Below are positions 5,427 through 62,747 of a DNA stretch of 64,000 bases, piece by piece; position 1 is the first letter of the stretch; the number at the start of each line of letters is the position of its first letter. The DNA is from Alphaproteobacteria bacterium (lineage in GTDB: Bacteria; Pseudomonadota; Alphaproteobacteria; G963923945): positions 1,643,288 through 1,707,287 of the forward strand of contig OZ240684.1 in the NCBI GenBank assembly GCA_965199175.1, written 5' to 3'. The notes beneath the pieces are model-generated. The model had not been told where the DNA came from and ran no database searches. It saw nothing but the letters and a program-made list of their open reading frames with translations. The position numbers and the translations under genes were made by a program.

Positions 5427-6224
5427 TTGTTACTGTCTCGAAGGAACATCTTGATGCCTGTCCATTTTGTCGGGGCCGGACCCGGAGACCCAGATCTTCT
5501 CACCTTACGCGGTCGTGATCTGCTGCGGGCTGCTGATGCTGTTCTGTATGCCGGATCCCTGGTCCCGAAAGCCCTGTTGGCAGAAGCCAAAAAAGCCCGG
5601 GAAATCATCGATACCGCCCCGCTGACCCTCAAAGTCATCATCGACCATATAGACCGTCTGCATCACACAGGATGCCAAATTGTCCGTCTGCATTCCGGCG
5701 ATTTATCTCTTTATAGTGCAGTTGCAGAGCAAATCCGGCATCTCAATCGATTGCAGATTCCCTATGATATGACGCCGGGTGTTCCGGCTTATGCTGCCGC
5801 AGCCTCAGCCCTTGGGCAGGAACTCACCCTGCCGGGGATTACCCAAAGCGTCATCCTGACCCGTACCGCTACCCGTTCCTCAGCCATGCCTCCGGGAGAA
5901 ACCCTGAACGAACTGGCCTCTGGCGGAGCAACCATGGCCATCCATCTCTCAGCAACCAATCTCGCCAGGCTGGTCACCGCATTGATTCCTCATTACGGGG
6001 CTGATTGTCCCGCCGCCGCCTTGTATCGGCTAGGCTGGCCGGATGCCCGGATCATCCGGGCACCACTTGATCAGATACGTGCCAAAGTCAAAGCCGCCAA
6101 AATCACCCGCACTGCTCTCATTCTGGTTGGCCCGGCATTAGCAGCAGATCATTTCAGCGACAGCCGTCTGTATGATGCCGACCATCATCATCTGTTTCGG
6201 GATGCAACAACCAAAGCAGATTAA
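5427..6224 (+). CDS. cbiF: precorrin-4 C11-methyltransferase (CbiF/CobM)
   Basis: 265 aa; VHFVGAGPGDPDLLTLRG tetrapyrrole methylase signature. Confidence 0.85.
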   Translation: MLLSRRNILMPVHFVGAGPGDPDLLTLRGRDLLRAADAVLYAGSLVPKALLAEAKKAREIIDTAPLTLKVIIDHIDRLHHTGCQIVRLHSGDLSLYSAVAEQIRHLNRLQIPYDMTPGVPAYAAAASALGQELTLPGITQSVILTRTATRSSAMPPGETLNELASGGATMAIHLSATNLARLVTALIPHYGADCPAAALYRLGWPDARIIRAPLDQIRAKVKAAKITRTALILVGPALAADHFSDSRLYDADHHHLFRDATTKAD

Positions 6225-6378
6225 CCGGGTCCTGAGAGTGTGACCCCGTTGGTTGGTTGAATCCCAAACCATATCCTCCGCCCCGGCCAGTCTCCAAAAG
6301 CTAATCATATCGTCACTCATCGTCATCATCACGTACAGTCACGTTACAGTCGCGTTACGGCCACTTTAATCACCTCAA

Positions 6379-6984
6379 TCACCGGCTTTTTTGTTCAAAA
6401 ATGCGCCGGATCAAACGGCTGCGGGAATGGCTTGCATAATACTCTGCATCGCGCCCGGTATAATCAGCCAGCCGGGGATCCGCTCCGGCCGCCAGCAAAA
6501 TCCGCACTGATTCGGTCTGATCGCCCTTAACCGCCTGGATCAATGGGGTTGCACCATCCTTGTTCTGGTGGTCAATATCCGCTCCCGCATCAATCAGGCG
6601 TCTGAGAATAGCTCCCTTCCCCAAAGAGGCCGCCCACATCACCACTGTATTCCCGTAAGGATCTTTCTGGCTGATTTTGGCCCCATAATCGAGCAACATA
6701 TCAATCATCTCCATATTGCCCAGCTTCACCCCATACATGAGCGGCGTGTTGCCTTTTGAATCTGGGGTATTGGGAGAAAAATCGGTCTCCAGATGGCGTC
6801 TGATTTTATCAATATCACCACTGCGAACAGCCGTCCAATAAACCAGCTCAGGGAATACATCGCTTTCCACAGCCCGCGCCGGACCAGCCCCCATGACTGA
6901 GACCATCACCACAACCAGAGCCATCCAAAACAACCCGGAGAAGGGATACATTCCGGAAAACCCCAAAAAATCCTTAAAAACCAC
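6379..6984 (-). CDS. ankyrin-repeat protein with an N-terminal hydrophobic segment (signal peptide or membrane anchor)
   Basis: At least 4 ANK-like repeats (GNTPLMYGV..., GNTVVMWAA..., DGATPLIQAV...); the N-terminus has the hydrophobic stretch LFWMALVVVMVSVMGAG. Confidence 0.7.
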   Translation of the reverse strand: MVFKDFLGFSGMYPFSGLFWMALVVVMVSVMGAGPARAVESDVFPELVYWTAVRSGDIDKIRRHLETDFSPNTPDSKGNTPLMYGVKLGNMEMIDMLLDYGAKISQKDPYGNTVVMWAASLGKGAILRRLIDAGADIDHQNKDGATPLIQAVKGDQTESVRILLAAGADPRLADYTGRDAEYYASHSRSRLIRRIFEQKSR

Positions 6985-57402: not shown

Positions 57403-58800
57403 GTGATGATAAAGGCCCCGATGACTCCCGCATCCCGCAAAAAAAACCACACCGATGAACAGGTCCCGATCACCGATACGGAGCCGTTGATCACGTATCT
57501 GTCTCAGGGCTGTACAATCCGGAGCAACTGGCGGATCGGGACCGAACATGAGAAATTTGCCTATCGGCTCAGTGATCACCATCCCTTAAGCTATGATGAG
57601 GTGGGGGGGATACGTGATCTGCTCCGGGGCTTGCTGCGTTTCGGCTGGCAGCCGATTGAAGAAGCAGGCCAGATCATCGCCTTAAGTCGGGATGGTGCCT
57701 CGGTCACTTTGGAACCAGGTGGCCAGATTGAACTCTCCGGTGCGCCCCTGGTCTCGGTTCATGAAACCTGCCTGGAAGTTCGTGAACATCTCAAAGAGAT
57801 CAAATCGGTTGCTGAGGGAATCGGGGCCGGATTGATGGGTTTGGGAGTCCTCCCGATTGCCGGACGCAATGCCATTTCCTGGATGCCGAAAGAACGTTAC
57901 GCAATTATGCGCCGCTACATGCCCACCAAAGGAGACCAGGGCCTTGATATGATGACCCGGACCGCCACCGTACAGGTCAATCTTGATTTTGAATCCGAAG
58001 CCGACATGGTGACAAAATTTCGGGTTGCCCAAGCACTCCAGCCGGTCGCGGTCGCCCTTTATGCCAACTCGCCCTTCCTCAATGGTCGTCCGAGTGGCTG
58101 GCTGAGTACACGCAGCCATATCTGGAACCATACCGACCCGGATCGTTGTGGTATTTTGCCTTTCATCTTTGACGATGGCTTCGGTTTTGAACGTTATGTC
58201 GATTATCTGCTTGATGTTCCAATGTATTTTGTCCGCCGCCAGGGTCGCTATATTGATGCTGCCGGTCAGTCTTTCCGTGATTTTCTATCCGGACGACTCC
58301 CGGCTTTACCAGGGGAATATCCGTATTTGAGCGATTGGATTGACCATATGAGCACCGTATTTACCGAGGTGCGGCTGAAACGTTTTCTTGAAATGCGCGG
58401 AGCAGATGGTGGGGCGTGGAATCGCCTCTGTGCACTTTCAGCATTTTGGGTCGGGCTGCTTTATGACCCGGTTGCTCAGGATGCTGCCTGGGATCTGGTC
58501 AAAAACTGGTCTCTGGAAGATCACATGCTCTTGCGTCAGGATATCCCCAAAACCGCTTTGGCAACCCATACGCCGGCTGGTCCCATGGCCGCATTGGCTG
58601 AGCAGGTCCTGGAGATTGCAGCGATGGGTCTCAAACGCCGGGGGTTTCAGGACACCAAAGGCAAGGATGAAAGCGGTTTCCTTGATCCGCTGATCGAAAT
58701 TGCTCAATCCAAAACCACCCCGGCGGAAATCTGGTTGGATGCCTATGCCCATCGGTGGAACGGCAGCCTCGATCCGATCTTTACCGAAAACGCATACTAA
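57403..58800 (+). CDS. gshA: glutamate--cysteine ligase (plant/alphaproteobacterial GCS2 type)
   Basis: 465 aa; GTEHEKF motif. Confidence 0.85.
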   Translation: MMIKAPMTPASRKKNHTDEQVPITDTEPLITYLSQGCTIRSNWRIGTEHEKFAYRLSDHHPLSYDEVGGIRDLLRGLLRFGWQPIEEAGQIIALSRDGASVTLEPGGQIELSGAPLVSVHETCLEVREHLKEIKSVAEGIGAGLMGLGVLPIAGRNAISWMPKERYAIMRRYMPTKGDQGLDMMTRTATVQVNLDFESEADMVTKFRVAQALQPVAVALYANSPFLNGRPSGWLSTRSHIWNHTDPDRCGILPFIFDDGFGFERYVDYLLDVPMYFVRRQGRYIDAAGQSFRDFLSGRLPALPGEYPYLSDWIDHMSTVFTEVRLKRFLEMRGADGGAWNRLCALSAFWVGLLYDPVAQDAAWDLVKNWSLEDHMLLRQDIPKTALATHTPAGPMAALAEQVLEIAAMGLKRRGFQDTKGKDESGFLDPLIEIAQSKTTPAEIWLDAYAHRWNGSLDPIFTENAY

Positions 58801-58909
58801 TTCAGTGATCCCCTCATTCAGTCATTGCAGGTTCATGTCTGTTCCAGATCAGAATCGACATATTATTCTGATACAGTTTTTTTATAATTCTCTGGCAATC
58901 CAATTCCCT

Positions 58910-58930
58910 GATAATCCGGTAGTGGGTCAC
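58910..58930. repeat. A 21-bp sequence (gataatccggtagtgggtcac) that is a near-perfect inverted copy of the IS right end at 61851-61870
   Basis: Direct comparison: the reverse complement of 61851-61870 is gattatcggtagtgggtcac. Confidence 0.8.
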
Positions 58931-59004
58931 TTTGAAATCTAACGCTCTCACGACTTCACTAGGTTTCGTTTGCGTCCGGTGCTGGCAATGCCTATCTTAC
59001 AAGC

Positions 59005-59220
59005 ATGACTAATAAACCCAAACGCCCAAGAGACGCGAACAAGTTAGCAAAGTCCATTGTGGACATTGCTATTGGCCAAGTCGAAGAAGAGCCGAAGGCA
59101 AAGGGGCAACAGCTTGGTGGCAAGAAGGGCGGGGCAGCCCGCGCTAAATCACTAAACGCTGCAGAACGATCCGAGATTGCAAGGATAGCCGCTGCGGCGA
59201 GATGGAAGAAGTCTCGCTAG
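59005..59220 (+). CDS. small lysine-rich basic protein (GGKKGG...ERSEIARIAAAARW motif), a putative DNA/RNA-binding protein
   Basis: 71 aa; pI very basic; resembles a widespread family of small proteins on mobile elements. Confidence 0.4.
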   Translation: MTNKPKRPRDANKLAKSIVDIAIGQVEEEPKAKGQQLGGKKGGAARAKSLNAAERSEIARIAAAARWKKSR

Positions 59221-59714
59221 GCTGCTTCATCTTCGTCCCCATCCGTCAAGCCGTTGGCAACTTTCATCTCTTCGATGTCTTCTTCGAAGTCCATGATGAT
59301 CTGAATGTCATCTTCGTTGGGATGGGCTTCGTTGTAGTGATCGACCTTCATAACCAATGCGTAGCAATCGCTTGCGATTAATCGGCGTTCTTGCTGTACG
59401 CTCTTTTCAACGTGCAGCCGGGGCGCTTCATCAATATCATCCCACTCAAACAGAGTTTCGCCCGTTTTAGCTTTTGATCGCACCGGAATGTTTGCCCGGT
59501 ATTCTCGTCCGGCTTTGTCGGTCCTTTTTTCTTCGCGCAGCGCCTGCGCCAGATCGTTTGCAAGGCTTGTACTCAAATCTATAGGTCTTGGTTGCCAAAG
59601 CCCTTGCCTGATTGCCCAAGCAGCGACCGTCTTTAGGTCAACGGGATCAGATGAAACCTCGTCACGATACTTTTGCCAGATATTTTGGCGTAGTTGTTCT
59701 TTGTAGTTCGGCAT
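59217..59714 (-). CDS. hypothetical 165-aa protein with an acidic C-terminus, second gene of an operon with the HTH-ImmA gene
   Basis: Separated by 12 bp from the upstream gene on the same strand; no recognisable domain. Confidence 0.45.
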   Translation of the reverse strand: MPNYKEQLRQNIWQKYRDEVSSDPVDLKTVAAWAIRQGLWQPRPIDLSTSLANDLAQALREEKRTDKAGREYRANIPVRSKAKTGETLFEWDDIDEAPRLHVEKSVQQERRLIASDCYALVMKVDHYNEAHPNEDDIQIIMDFEEDIEEMKVANGLTDGDEDEAA

Positions 59715-59726
59715 TTCGTTACTCCG

Positions 59727-60827
59727 TTATTTGCCAGTAGGGATCAGGTCACCCCAACCATCCATCATCATTGACGCAGACAGCGATTGTCTGACTTTCA
59801 CCAAGTGTCGGCGAAGAAAATCGTAACGATTCATCTTCCGTTGCAGTTGCCCGACCACTAGACCGGGGTGAACCCCCATACGCTTTGAGAATGCCAGCAC
59901 ATCCCGTCCTGAAAAGTATGGGTTCTTTCGTAAATAGAACGATTGCATTTTCTTGGATGAAACGCAGAAATCCGCAGCTTCTGAATTTGCAATAATTTCT
60001 TCTTCCGAAATGTTTGCTTCCATAGTTGGATCGCCCAAATCACAATCAACAATCGCGGCTTGTTTGCCGTGCCCGTGAAGCACATGGGCGCATTCATGGC
60101 GGAGAACAAACCAAAAATTATCAATGCGATCATAGCGCAGAGACATGCCAATGACAGGTGAAGTTTGGTCGAGCCAAAGGCAAACCCCGTCAATGGTGCT
60201 ATTCGCGATGCCCTCAACAACGACAAAACGGACCCCGGCTTTTTCAAGCAGCTGAGGGACGTAACGGACGTCCTCAGGCTTACCTCTCAAACCTTCAAAT
60301 GCTTTGATTGCATCCATGAACTTCTGCTTGTCATAAGACGGGGAAAGCATCTCCTCAGCGATGCGCTTTACACGAAATAGCCATGCAAGTTGCTGCGGGG
60401 GAACTTCTTCATAAGAGGTCTTCTTCGCGATGTGGGAGAGGTGGGGAACATCCTCAATGTCTTCTACGTCAAAGAACCTGTAAACCTGTTGTTCAAGCGT
60501 TCCTTCTCCGTGTTCAGGATCAACCCACCCTCGCTTTTCCATTTCTCTGAGCGGGTATTGGCTCAAAATCTTAGCCCGTGCTTTGATTCTGGGGTCGGGT
60601 TCTTCAGAGTGCTTAATCCCCCATTTTGCCTGAATCTGAGCGATTTCAGCAGCATCATATTCCAACGCAGCACCGAGAGACTGAGCCATTGCAGTGCTGA
60701 TCGAACGTTTGTCATTTAGTATTTGATTGATAGAAGCTGGCTGAGTGCCAATAGCGTAAGCCAGGTCACTTTGGGTCCAGCCCTTGCCTTCCATCTTGGA
60801 CTTAATGAATGTTCCTGGGGATGTCAT
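59727..60827 (-). CDS. XRE-family helix-turn-helix fused to an ImmA/IrrE-family (COG2856) zinc metallopeptidase
   Basis: N-terminal HTH (WTQSDLAYAIGTQPASINQILNDKRSIS), HEXXH motif (RHECAHVLHGH). Confidence 0.8.
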   Translation of the reverse strand: MTSPGTFIKSKMEGKGWTQSDLAYAIGTQPASINQILNDKRSISTAMAQSLGAALEYDAAEIAQIQAKWGIKHSEEPDPRIKARAKILSQYPLREMEKRGWVDPEHGEGTLEQQVYRFFDVEDIEDVPHLSHIAKKTSYEEVPPQQLAWLFRVKRIAEEMLSPSYDKQKFMDAIKAFEGLRGKPEDVRYVPQLLEKAGVRFVVVEGIANSTIDGVCLWLDQTSPVIGMSLRYDRIDNFWFVLRHECAHVLHGHGKQAAIVDCDLGDPTMEANISEEEIIANSEAADFCVSSKKMQSFYLRKNPYFSGRDVLAFSKRMGVHPGLVVGQLQRKMNRYDFLRRHLVKVRQSLSASMMMDGWGDLIPTGK

Positions 60828-60924
60828 GGGCCTGTTTCTTTCTTGGTTTTCCCCATACTAGAATGAGCACCATCGCTCGTCAATTATTGTTTTAGCAAAT
60901 ATGTTAAAATGACCTATATGCTTG

Positions 60925-61870
60925 ACTATGGTATGTTGATCACTTAGATTAACTGCATGAACAAGTTAGATGTCAAAACCCGCTCTCTGATCATCCGCCT
61001 TCTTGTTGAGGGAAATAGCATCCGTGCCACCAGCCGGATCGCAGATGTGTCTAAGAATACGGTCAACAAGCTTCTGATTGACGCAGGCAAGGCTTGCTCG
61101 AAATACCATGACGAGAACGTGCGCAATGTGAAAGCATCCGTGATCCAATGTGATGAAATCTGGTCGTTCACCTACGCAAAACAGAAAAACGTCAAGACGG
61201 CTAAAGCAGCGCCGGAACATGCGGGCGACACTTGGACTTGGACCGCGCTGGATAGCGAAAGCAAGCTGATCGTGTCCTACATGGTCGGTGGCCGTGACAG
61301 CGAGTACGCAATCGGCTTCATGGATGATCTGTGTGCGCGTCTGGCGAAACCGGGTGCAACTCACTACGGACGGTCACAAGGCGTATTTGGAAGCCGTAGA
61401 GGGCGCGTTCGGCGGGGACGTAGACTATGCCCAGCTTATCAAGCTGTATGGCGAACCCACGGGACAGAAGGGCCACGAACGCAAGTATTCGCCCTTTGAA
61501 TGTACCGGCACCAAAAAGCGCGTTGTCGAAGGTAGACCGATCAAGGCACTTGTCAGCACATCACACATCGAGCGCCAGAACCTTACTATGCGGATGCACA
61601 TGCGCCGGTTTACCCGCCTGACCAATGCTTTCAGCAAGAAGGTCGAGAACCATGCTTACGCGGTCGCGCTACATTTCATGTATTACAACTTCGCCAAGGT
61701 TCATCAGACGCTCAAGGTGACGCCCGCAATGGAAGCTGGCCTGACGGATCGTCTTTGGGATATTTCAGATCTGGTCGCTCTTGTGGACGCAAATGAACCT
61801 GCATCCAAGAAACGAGGACTATACAAGAAACGCCAGAAGCAAATTTCAAAGTGACCCACTACCGATAATC
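60925..61870 (+). mobile_element. IS1-family insertion sequence, roughly 0.95 kb, with imperfect terminal inverted repeats (60925-60944 / 61851-61870)
   Basis: The transposase shows clear similarity to IS1 InsA (HTH) and InsB (DDE; VIQCDEIWSF, W.TDG, IER.NL); terminal IRs found by eye. Confidence 0.7.
60957..61854 (+). pseudogene. IS1-family transposase interrupted by a +1 frame change near 61340-61350, at an AAA run in gcgaaaccgggtg. Either a frameshifted pseudogene or a programmed-frameshift InsAB'-type gene
   Basis: Two overlapping ORFs (60957-61499, 61288-61854); the homology runs continuously from ...FMDDLCARLA into RVQLTTDGHKAY... Confidence 0.7.
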
Positions 61871-61988
61871 CAATTTTGCACGTCCCGATTACATACTCCC
61901 ATCAACCCTGTCTGTGCCGAAAAGATACCGCAGTGTCAGCAAATATCACAATGACACCCCCAATAAAAACAACCATAAAGGAGTCCCC

Positions 61989-62279
61989 ATGACCCACCAA
62001 TGCGGATCCCTTGACCAGGTACGCAGAGAAATTGACCGTCTGGATGATTCCCTGCTTGATCTCCTGGCTGAACGCAGCTGCTATGTCCGGCAAGCGGTTC
62101 AACTCAAAAACCGTGATCAGATTATTGATCAGGAGCGTATTGAAGCCATCCTCACCCGCATACGGGAACGCGCTGCTGCCCTTGATCTGCAACCCGATAT
62201 TGCCGAGGCGGTCTGGCGGCGCATGATTGATGCCTTCATCGCTTATGAAGAACAAATCTATGATGATGTCCACACATGA
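61989..62279 (+). CDS. AroQ-class chorismate mutase; the internal ATG is chosen because the upstream part of the ORF overlaps the IS end
   Basis: LDQVRREIDRLDDSLLDLLAERSCYVRQAVQLK, typical of CM_2. Confidence 0.7.
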   Translation: MTHQCGSLDQVRREIDRLDDSLLDLLAERSCYVRQAVQLKNRDQIIDQERIEAILTRIRERAAALDLQPDIAEAVWRRMIDAFIAYEEQIYDDVHT

Positions 62280-62396
62280 CCCATCATGGGATGAATGAAT
62301 TCCTTCCGACCGATGATTAAAAGAGTGTCTTTATACCTGAAGAAAAATTGAATCCTCCCGAAGAAAAAATTGATCCATTAAAGTGAACCCAATGCC

Positions 62397-62747
62397 TTAA
62401 TGCCCTGATGCAGTGTACAAAATCTGATAAATTTCTCTTTGCTTACGGCTGCCACCGTATCTTCTGGCCAACTGCCAGGGTTGCAGGCCATTCTCATTGA
62501 TTGCTCCGGGATTGGCCCCGGCTTTGAGCAGCGTTCTGACAGTGTCAACGACAAAATGTCCATAAAACGATACAAGGGGTAAAAGTGATTCAATAACCGG
62601 GACGCTGGCTATCGGATTGCTTCGACCAAACTGCTTCGACCTCATTTTCACTTTATCTGATTTTACGTTACGTTGATCTGATTTTACGTTACGTTGTCTT
62701 TTGTTCTTCCGCCTGTTTTTTCTCGTGTTTTTTAATGACTGATCCAA
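62397..62747 (-). CDS. possible ankyrin-repeat gene remnant (a single ANK repeat at the C-terminus); the upstream part contains a 2 x 21 bp direct repeat and may not be coding
   Basis: LLKAGANPGAINENGLQPWQLA resembles an ANK repeat; the rest is low complexity. Confidence 0.3.
   Translation of the reverse strand: MDQSLKNTRKNRRKNKRQRNVKSDQRNVKSDKVKMRSKQFGRSNPIASVPVIESLLPLVSFYGHFVVDTVRTLLKAGANPGAINENGLQPWQLARRYGGSRKQREIYQILYTASGH

Follow-up and report, generated by a model that had tools for sequence, protein, structure and literature searches.

A probable transporter-type IS1-family element with passenger genes between gshA and a chorismate mutase gene in an alphaproteobacterial genome

The locus described here lies in a 64,000-nucleotide stretch of an Alphaproteobacteria bacterium genome (assembly GCA_965199175.1, contig OZ240684.1, positions 1,643,288 to 1,707,287), which we refer to as the window. 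The intergenic region between gshA and a chorismate mutase gene is occupied by a unit of 2,946 bp (58918-61863) that is bounded by inverted repeats and contains four genes: those for a small basic protein (p71), a protein of 165 amino acids (p165), a protein with a helix-turn-helix (HTH) and a peptidase domain (p366), and a transposase related to that of the insertion sequence (IS) IS1. The genes of the left flank are rsmE and gshA (GCS2 family), and those of the right flank encode a CM_2 chorismate mutase and a UbiE/MenG-type methyltransferase, the latter recognized by eye from the translation of its open reading frame (ORF). An earlier reading of the DNA letters by a model, the original prediction, had described an IS1-family unit of roughly 3 kb with 20-bp inverted repeats that is mobilized together with its non-transposase genes. 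The features of the unit, with its left and right terminal inverted repeats (IRL and IRR) and target-site duplication (TSD), are as follows.

58910-58917, no strand: left TSD copy GATAATCC, identical to 61864-61871 and adjoining the IRL
58918-58938, forward strand: IRL, GGTAGTGGGTCACTTTGAAAT, starting GGnnnTG like IS1 ends
59005-59220, forward strand: p71, a 71-amino acid basic protein, conserved core gene of the IS group
59217-59714, reverse strand: p165, a 165-amino acid protein with an acidic COOH-terminus ending in AA, downstream partner of p366 and in the position of PD-lambda-2 component C
59727-60827, reverse strand: p366, a 366-amino acid protein with a HigA-like Xre HTH and an HExxH peptidase domain (M78/ImmA-IrrE type), homologue of PD-lambda-2 component B
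60855-60883, reverse strand: promoter-like site of the p366-p165 operon (TTGACG, 17 nucleotides, TAGTAT), from a consensus scan only
60906-60950, forward strand: transposase promoter region with an operator-like copy, -35 box and -10 box, which holds the "weaker repeat" of the original prediction
60957-61854, forward strand: IS1-family DDE transposase gene, split by a 1-nucleotide insertion in AAA 61347-61349
61843-61863, reverse strand: IRR, overlapping the transposase stop codon
61864-61871, no strand: right TSD copy GATAATCC, abutting the IRR

The two ends of the unit form a perfect inverted pair of 21 nucleotides, GGTAGTGGGTCACTTTGAAAT, at 58918-58938 on the forward strand and 61843-61863 on the reverse strand. 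With up to three mismatches allowed, this sequence matched the 64-kb window at two positions, which are the two ends, and 100 dinucleotide-preserving shuffles gave 0 matches. The octamer GATAATCC is present as a direct repeat at 58910-58917 and 61864-61871, abutting both inverted repeats, and thus forms an 8-bp TSD; the chance of identity at eight of eight bases at one fixed position is approximately 1 in 65,536, and the base C58917/G61864 can be assigned to either the repeat or the duplication. A duplication of the 8 to 9 bp typical of IS1 was the check proposed with the original prediction, and GATAATCC on both sides provides it. The inverted repeats proposed there are also real, and they are stronger than had been thought, being 21 nucleotides long, perfect, and reaching inward. 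The 20-mers originally given, however, mixed two features, the outer 13 nucleotides of the true repeat and GATAATC(C) from the TSD octamer, and seemed a near-perfect inverted pair because GATAATC is nearly its own reverse complement. The GC content of the unit (49.7%) had been thought lower than that of its flanks; it is below that of the left 10 kb (52.2%) but above that of the right flank (47.8%), with the window at 51.8%, and the difference is marginal and not distinctive. An Rfam scan of 58000-62600 gave no match.

The stop codon of the transposase gene lies inside the IRR. The transposase of related elements is a single ORF of approximately 298 amino acids, and joining of the two window frames by dropping one A at 61347-61349 also gave 298 amino acids. 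The joined sequence matched the Pfam model DDE_Tnp_IS1 (PF03400) with 37.1 bits (cut-off, 24.1), and BLASTP aligned it with E. coli InsB (E value, 4e-07) around the catalytic glutamate, where the two proteins have the signature T-x-x-IER-x-NL-x-x-R...FSK-x-VE-x-H in common. Residues D66, D138, and E205 are kept in at least 97% of 89 aligned transposases, residues 4-39 gave weak matches to HTH_23 and HTH_7, and the relatives are labeled "IS1 family transposase" by PGAP. In ISfinder, IS1 ends have a consensus of approximately 20 bp starting with GGnnnTG, and the target duplication of IS1 is 8 to 9 bp. The present element resembles IS1 of E. coli in the DDE signature around the catalytic E (PF03400), in ends of the form GGT..TG (GGTAGTG here and GGTGATG in IS1A, read directly), and in the placement of a small gene reading inward from the left end and of the catalytic gene at the right end. 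Given the transposase homology, the end sequence, and the length of the duplication, the element belongs with the IS1 family.

Relatives of the transposase were sought by a scan of one genome per bacterial or archaeal species, in which at least 547 were confirmed, and a viral-contig collection (IMG/VR) provided 31 further contigs with such relatives. The transposases from genomes, metagenomes, and viral contigs showed 49-93% amino-acid identity. Element ends were located in the fetched loci as matches to GGTAGTGGGTCA(C/G)TTTGAA flanking the transposase gene on either side, which yielded 95 complete elements. These correspond to 85 distinct insertions with lengths of 1.3-5.4 kb (median, 3.06 kb). 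A perfect 8-bp TSD was present in 59 of the 85 distinct insertions, each with a different sequence. The four-gene layout of the window is found at many unrelated sites in other genomes, with its own 8-bp duplication at each. The end consensus of the group, obtained from 84 elements, is GGTAGTGggTCAgTTTGAAAT, and the two ends of any one element lose their similarity beyond position 19-21. A GGTCAG-N8-CTGACC palindrome was considered as a general end feature and rejected, being present in just 9 of 84 left ends. An origin of the inverted repeat by chance, or from host intergenic repeats of the repetitive extragenic palindromic type, has the intergenic position as the only point in its favor; with no match in the shuffled sequences and with the same end sequence of 19-21 nucleotides bounding elements across many bacterial phyla as well as in viral contigs, such an origin is almost inconceivable. 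The three conditions named with the original prediction as refuting it, a lack of any duplication, a lack of other copies, and a repeat that proves to be host intergenic sequence, are all excluded.

The hosts of the group are Alpha-, Beta-, and Gammaproteobacteria, Bacteroidota, metagenome-assembled genomes (MAGs) of Chloroflexota, and viral contigs. In the common layout of the elements, p71 follows the left end and is itself followed by a cargo slot of variable content, a conserved promoter/operator, and the transposase gene, after which more cargo sometimes precedes the right end. The four-gene layout of the window is also found in a Mesorhizobium loti plasmid (CP050295), in Tardiphaga (CP041402), in a gammaproteobacterial MAG, and in marine metagenomes. 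Seven marine metagenome contigs (L082-L088) contain an element of 3,122 bp (242-3363 in L082) with 83% DNA identity to that of the window and with an intact transposase of 297 amino acids, situated beside phage lysis genes for LysC, BubE, and a GH108 endolysin. Given these lysis-gene neighbors and the 31 IMG/VR contigs (L089-L119), the group also resides in phages or prophages.

With an 8-bp TSD that brackets the whole 2,946 bp and a four-gene layout that recurs elsewhere, the idea of a roughly 3-kb IS1-family unit that is mobile together with its non-transposase genes holds. We consider it very probable that 58918-61863 is one IS1-family "transporter" IS with passenger genes that was inserted as a single piece. 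Transporter ISs (tISs) with passenger genes were first defined for the IS1-related IS1595 family (Siguier et al. 2009, as cited in PMC3129680 and PMC7986276). The window element resembles them in its IS-type ends, single DDE transposase, passengers inside the ends, and duplication around the whole unit, and it agrees with their definition in that the TSD brackets all four genes and the cargo varies among elements that share ends. It differs from the tISs of the IS1595 family in that its transposase matches the IS1 Pfam model and not the IS1595 model, in that the group has a conserved second core gene, p71, and in that the cargo consists mostly of toxin-antitoxin or defense modules. It differs from IS1 of E. 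coli in size, 2.9 kb compared with 0.77 kb, and IS1 has no cargo slot.

In 90 of the 95 complete elements, whatever else these contain, a p71 homologue adjoins the IRL on its inner side and reads inward, and two p71 homologues picked from a protein database regardless of context were both found to lie inside such elements. On these two grounds p71 is a core gene and not a passenger. The original prediction was thus correct in counting three non-transposase genes, but the small basic protein was misplaced among the cargo. There are more than 1,000 clusters of p71 homologues, and searches of Pfam, NCBIfam, and PADLOC assigned p71 to no family; a weak PHROG match covers its COOH-terminal motif. 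An AF2 model of p71 consists of three helices at moderate confidence (pLDDT, 72.8), and no match in the PDB was found by sequence or by fold (best Foldseek E value, 3.2). The idea that p71 might be a diverged InsA was dropped, given an hhalign probability of 0.1%, and the small left-end protein is in this respect unrelated to its counterpart in E. coli IS1. In the Mesorhizobium loti plasmid CP050295, the p71 homologue is annotated as "histone H1." The p71 and p165 genes are convergent and have 4 nucleotides in common (59217-59220), their stop codons sharing the palindrome CTAG in the window, and this overlap is kept in distant relatives (719-722 in L082 and 5222-5225 in L209). A minimal element of p71 plus transposase was not found among the resolved elements. 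The sole case of 1.3 kb (L097, positions 5518-6840, 1,323 bp, IMG/VR viral contig) has a truncated p71 and the TSD AATCTCCC, and its cargo is a tRNA gene (5776-5859) with the anticodon tta, which would read the UAA stop codon.

The p366 and transposase genes are separated by a divergent control region of 129 nucleotides with no ORF inside. At 60906-60914, the inner half of the terminal repeat is present in inverted orientation as AAAATGACC, and a sigma-70-like transposase promoter is formed by a -35 box, TTGACT (60922-60927), a spacer of 17 nucleotides, and a -10 box, TAGATT (60945-60950). Given that the -10 box ends 6 nucleotides before the ATG, the transposase mRNA is probably leaderless or nearly so; the spacing from the -10 box to the ATG looks alike in relatives. 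The context of the -35 box, TGCTTGAC, is present in 56 of 62 relatives, and AAACTGACC is present in 46 of them, directly adjoining the -35 box in 35. The sequence AAA(C/A)TGACC just upstream of the -35 box corresponds to the inner half of the terminal repeat (GGTCAGTTT) read on the opposite strand, and in 8 of the 62 relatives a forward copy, GGTCAnTTTGAA, lies instead between the -35 and -10 boxes. None of the internal sites contains the terminal GGTAGTG. We infer that the internal half-site is a putative binding site for the transposase or p71 in the control of transposase expression rather than an end of the transposon. What the original prediction had noted next to the transposase start as a weaker match is the conserved transposase promoter with a putative repeat-like operator. 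In IS1 of E. coli, InsA binds the ends and regulates there, which is comparable with the putative operator at the transposase promoter here; the promoter of the present element differs in being internal, 2 kb from the left end.

An alternative, which is a stricter form of the original prediction, is that the mobile element is an IS of 0.94 kb (approximately 60925-61863) whose left end was lost or weakened and which used a stray copy 2 kb upstream, thereby capturing three host genes. A weak resemblance to the repeat 12-30 nucleotides upstream of the transposase start and the good forward copy GGTCAnTTTGAA at this place in 8 of the 62 relatives would fit such a history. The proximal site, however, not only is without the terminal GGTAGTG but also coincides with the conserved -35 and -10 boxes, p71 is kept beside the distal end in nearly all complete relatives, and unrelated hosts contain the supposedly captured genes within the same ends. 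No genuine element of 0.9 kb was resolved, the one candidate (L008, 936 bp) being an artefact of a short contig with an internal site at 4 mismatches. We therefore regard this history as very unlikely. The element does end at the distal repeat, as originally proposed, but this repeat is the normal left end of the group and not an alternative end of a 0.9-kb IS. The two repeat-like sequences and the internal look-alike might also suggest a compound transposon, or what is left of a cargo region once framed by two copies of an IS. The unit contains, however, a single transposase gene, a bare repeat of 21 bp at the left end leads directly to p71, the two copies of the duplication enclose the entire unit, and all relatives are built in the same way, which makes this explanation extremely improbable.

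The transposase gene is uninterrupted at the position of the break in all 88 distinct aligned relatives, the local sequence being CTGGCGAACCGGGT in relatives and CTGGCGAAACCGGGT in the window, and a frameshift alignment against eight relatives showed the +1 insertion to be common to none of them. Because of the extra A near codon 130, the window product keeps just the DNA-binding region and D66 and loses D138 and E205. We read the 1-nucleotide insertion as a recent inactivating mutation and the window transposase gene as a likely pseudogene. With its transposase frameshifted, the element is probably no longer autonomous, and the window copy would be movable now only with a related transposase supplied in trans. 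It is improbable, although it deserves more weight than the alternatives considered above, that the inserted base arose from an error in sequencing, or that +1 frameshifting or transcriptional slippage overcomes it, with the element still autonomous. The repeats and the duplication are perfect, suggesting a recent insertion, and the break consists of a single A added to an AA run. Frameshifting is used by classical IS1, but it is of the -1 kind. The uninterrupted frame in all 88 relatives argues against such a bypass; moreover, GCG-AAA-CCG is not among known +1 slippery sites, and a run of three A residues is a short homopolymer for a sequencing error.

The cargo of the window element consists of p366 and p165. 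PD-lambda-2 was found by functional selection in E. coli and is an experimentally tested abortive-infection system of toxin-antitoxin-like character (Vassallo et al. 2022, PMC9519451). Its component A is HigB-like, its component B, a fusion of Xre and peptidase domains, is toxic by itself and is neutralized by A, and its component C, the product of the third gene, is required for defense and has been described as related to a P4 phage antitoxin (PMC9519451). The p366 protein matched the PADLOC model PD-Lambda-2_B over almost its whole length (residues 4-350; E value, 2.6e-46) and has the same architecture as component B, a HigA-like Xre HTH with a COOH-terminal peptidase. The HTH matched Pfam HTH_3 and, at residues 2-73, NCBIfam antidote_HigA, and the HExxH residues H244, E245, and H248 are kept in 93% or more of 30 homologues. 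For p165, no Pfam or PADLOC family was found. A HigB-like gene (PF05015) precedes the p366 homologue in 10 relatives, in the order HigB-like, B, p165, which corresponds to the A-B-C order of the E. coli system with its third small gene after B. We conclude from these homologies that p366-p165 is a predicted toxin-antitoxin/abortive-infection module of the PD-lambda-2 type in a two-gene form, without the HigB-like first gene.

Gene pairs of the p366-p165 type, with or without A, were also found away from this IS, and their presence outside it marks the pair of Xre-peptidase and p165 as an autonomous module. In Tara contigs, such a pair lies beside a gene with a faint HEPN-like Pfam match. In Pandoraea captiosa (L200, CABPSQ010000002.1, 3829-5480), an Xre-peptidase and p165-type pair is located a few kilobases from TniB/TniQ genes. 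Modules of this type may also ride transposons of the Tn7/Tn5053 type, and their position near TniB/TniQ in Pandoraea is a point of likeness with Tn7-like and Tn5053-like transposons that carry defense or toxin-antitoxin cargo.

Across the group, the cargo ORFs, which occupy the gap separating p71 from the transposase gene and in some elements also the region downstream of the latter, form 107 clusters of at least 90 amino acids, most of them singletons. The commonest cargo is the Xre-peptidase, which is present in 30 of the 85 insertions and is accompanied by p165 in 29 of these. Other elements carry Rosmer RmrT/RmrA (E values down to 1e-141), IetA, the candidate systems PDC-S13, PDC-S05, and HEC-04, as well as SocA/Panacea, AbiEii-like ATPases, HicB, and ClpP-like proteases. 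The presence of Rosmer, IetA, and PDC candidate systems is a further likeness to the Tn7-like and Tn5053-like transposons; those transposons are multi-protein and target-selecting, whereas the vehicle here is a minimal one with a single transposase. Nested ISs with DDE_Tnp_1 and DDE_3 transposases occupy the cargo slots of some elements (L005, L031, and L039). The shortest elements (approximately 1.9-2.2 kb; L013, L037, L059, L009, L075, and L066) have one protein of approximately 170-190 amino acids between p71 and the transposase, and several of these proteins, to which no family was assigned, share a COOH-terminal motif such as RGxWGLKEWYP.

The similarity of the cargo does not follow that of the transposase. 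In L004-L014, the transposases are 86-88% identical to that of the window and the p366 homologues just 36-44%, whereas in L082 the corresponding values are 85% and 89-96%. Given that the identities of transposase and cargo are uncoupled, modules have been exchanged between elements. Reciprocally swapped 8-bp flanks were observed for L027 and L028, which lie approximately 355 kb apart on one contig, and for L033 and L055, which belong to one MAG, the swapped flanks being GAAATTGC/GAACCATC and CCTTTTTG/CAACGATG. This pattern indicates recombination between two copies as units, with inversion or rearrangement.

Several observations weigh against the interpretation of the window element as a tIS of the IS1 family with a defense module. 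The match of the transposase to NCBIfam transpos_IS1 (E value, 3.6e-19; 69.5 bits) is under the curated cut-off of 100 bits. The NH2-terminal region as read is without the CxxC pair of a zinc finger, C47 being the sole conserved cysteine there, and the classical -1 frameshift of IS1 is absent, the ORF of relatives being uninterrupted; a single-ORF transposase with no -1 frameshift motif and apparently no zinc finger sets the element apart from IS1 of E. coli. With regard to the cargo, p165 and 13 homologues gave no match to PADLOC PD-Lambda-2_C at E values up to 1, and component A is absent upstream of p366 in the window, so that the defense assignment is by partial homology only. The module differs in both respects from PD-lambda-2 of E. 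coli. No second copy of the unit is present within the 64-kb window, and no empty site was found in the collections searched, in which the host lineage is without a close relative.

An empty junction between gshA and the chorismate mutase gene should read ...CCCTGATAATCCAATTTTGC.... No exact match to the left flank with its TSD, 24 nucleotides in all, was obtained in JGI metagenomes. Relatives of gshA in metagenomes are at most 62% identical and keep the synteny of rsmE and gshA, with no detectable chorismate mutase gene downstream; such distant relatives therefore offer no site for comparison. Outside the element, downstream of the chorismate mutase gene, tandem direct repeats are present at 62336-62376 and 62652-62693, one a 20-nucleotide pair with 80% identity and the other a 21-nucleotide pair with 95% identity.

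For an IS1-family tIS inserted in one piece, the following course of events can be proposed. The NH2-terminal HTH of the transposase would bind the GGTCA(G/C)TTT part of both ends, and the enzyme would cleave at the GG termini and insert the element by 8-bp staggered cuts as IS1 does. It would also bind the half-site copy at its own promoter and thereby limit its own expression. The p71 protein would serve as an accessory or regulatory factor of transposition, and the p366-p165 module would benefit the element by addiction or phage defense.

A more general proposal, which we advance tentatively and with doubt slightly outweighing belief, is that the group represents a large, undescribed IS1 subgroup that crosses phyla. 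Its core would be p71 and a single-ORF transposase without a zinc finger, its internal promoter would be self-regulated, and its cargo slot would shuttle small modules of the toxin-antitoxin and anti-phage kinds, and even a suppressor tRNA, with modules exchanged by recombination; p71 would represent a novel type of accessory factor in transposition. ISfinder contains an IS1 subgroup, ISMhu11, with elements of up to 4.6 kb. A literature search on ISMhu11, on IS1 with passenger genes, and on IS1 with defense cargo, which did not extend to ISfinder itself, found no description of the group. A group with a conserved p71, an internal promoter/operator, and defense-type cargo is thus apparently undescribed.

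The element accounts for the 2.9-kb insertion between gshA and the chorismate mutase gene. Given that A is reported to neutralize a toxic B, p366-p165, as a natural PD-lambda-2 variant without the HigB-like partner, could help to explain how this system is controlled. The group is easily missed, since the usual annotation is just "IS1 family transposase" beside "histone H1" and hypothetical genes, and its conserved ends together with p71 provide a simple handle for mining new small defense systems from the cargo slot. If the proposal is true, very small elements with a single transposase would transfer cassettes for defense and toxin-antitoxin functions among distant bacteria, and also to the genomes of phages, a traffic that is usually credited to large transposons, plasmids, and prophages.

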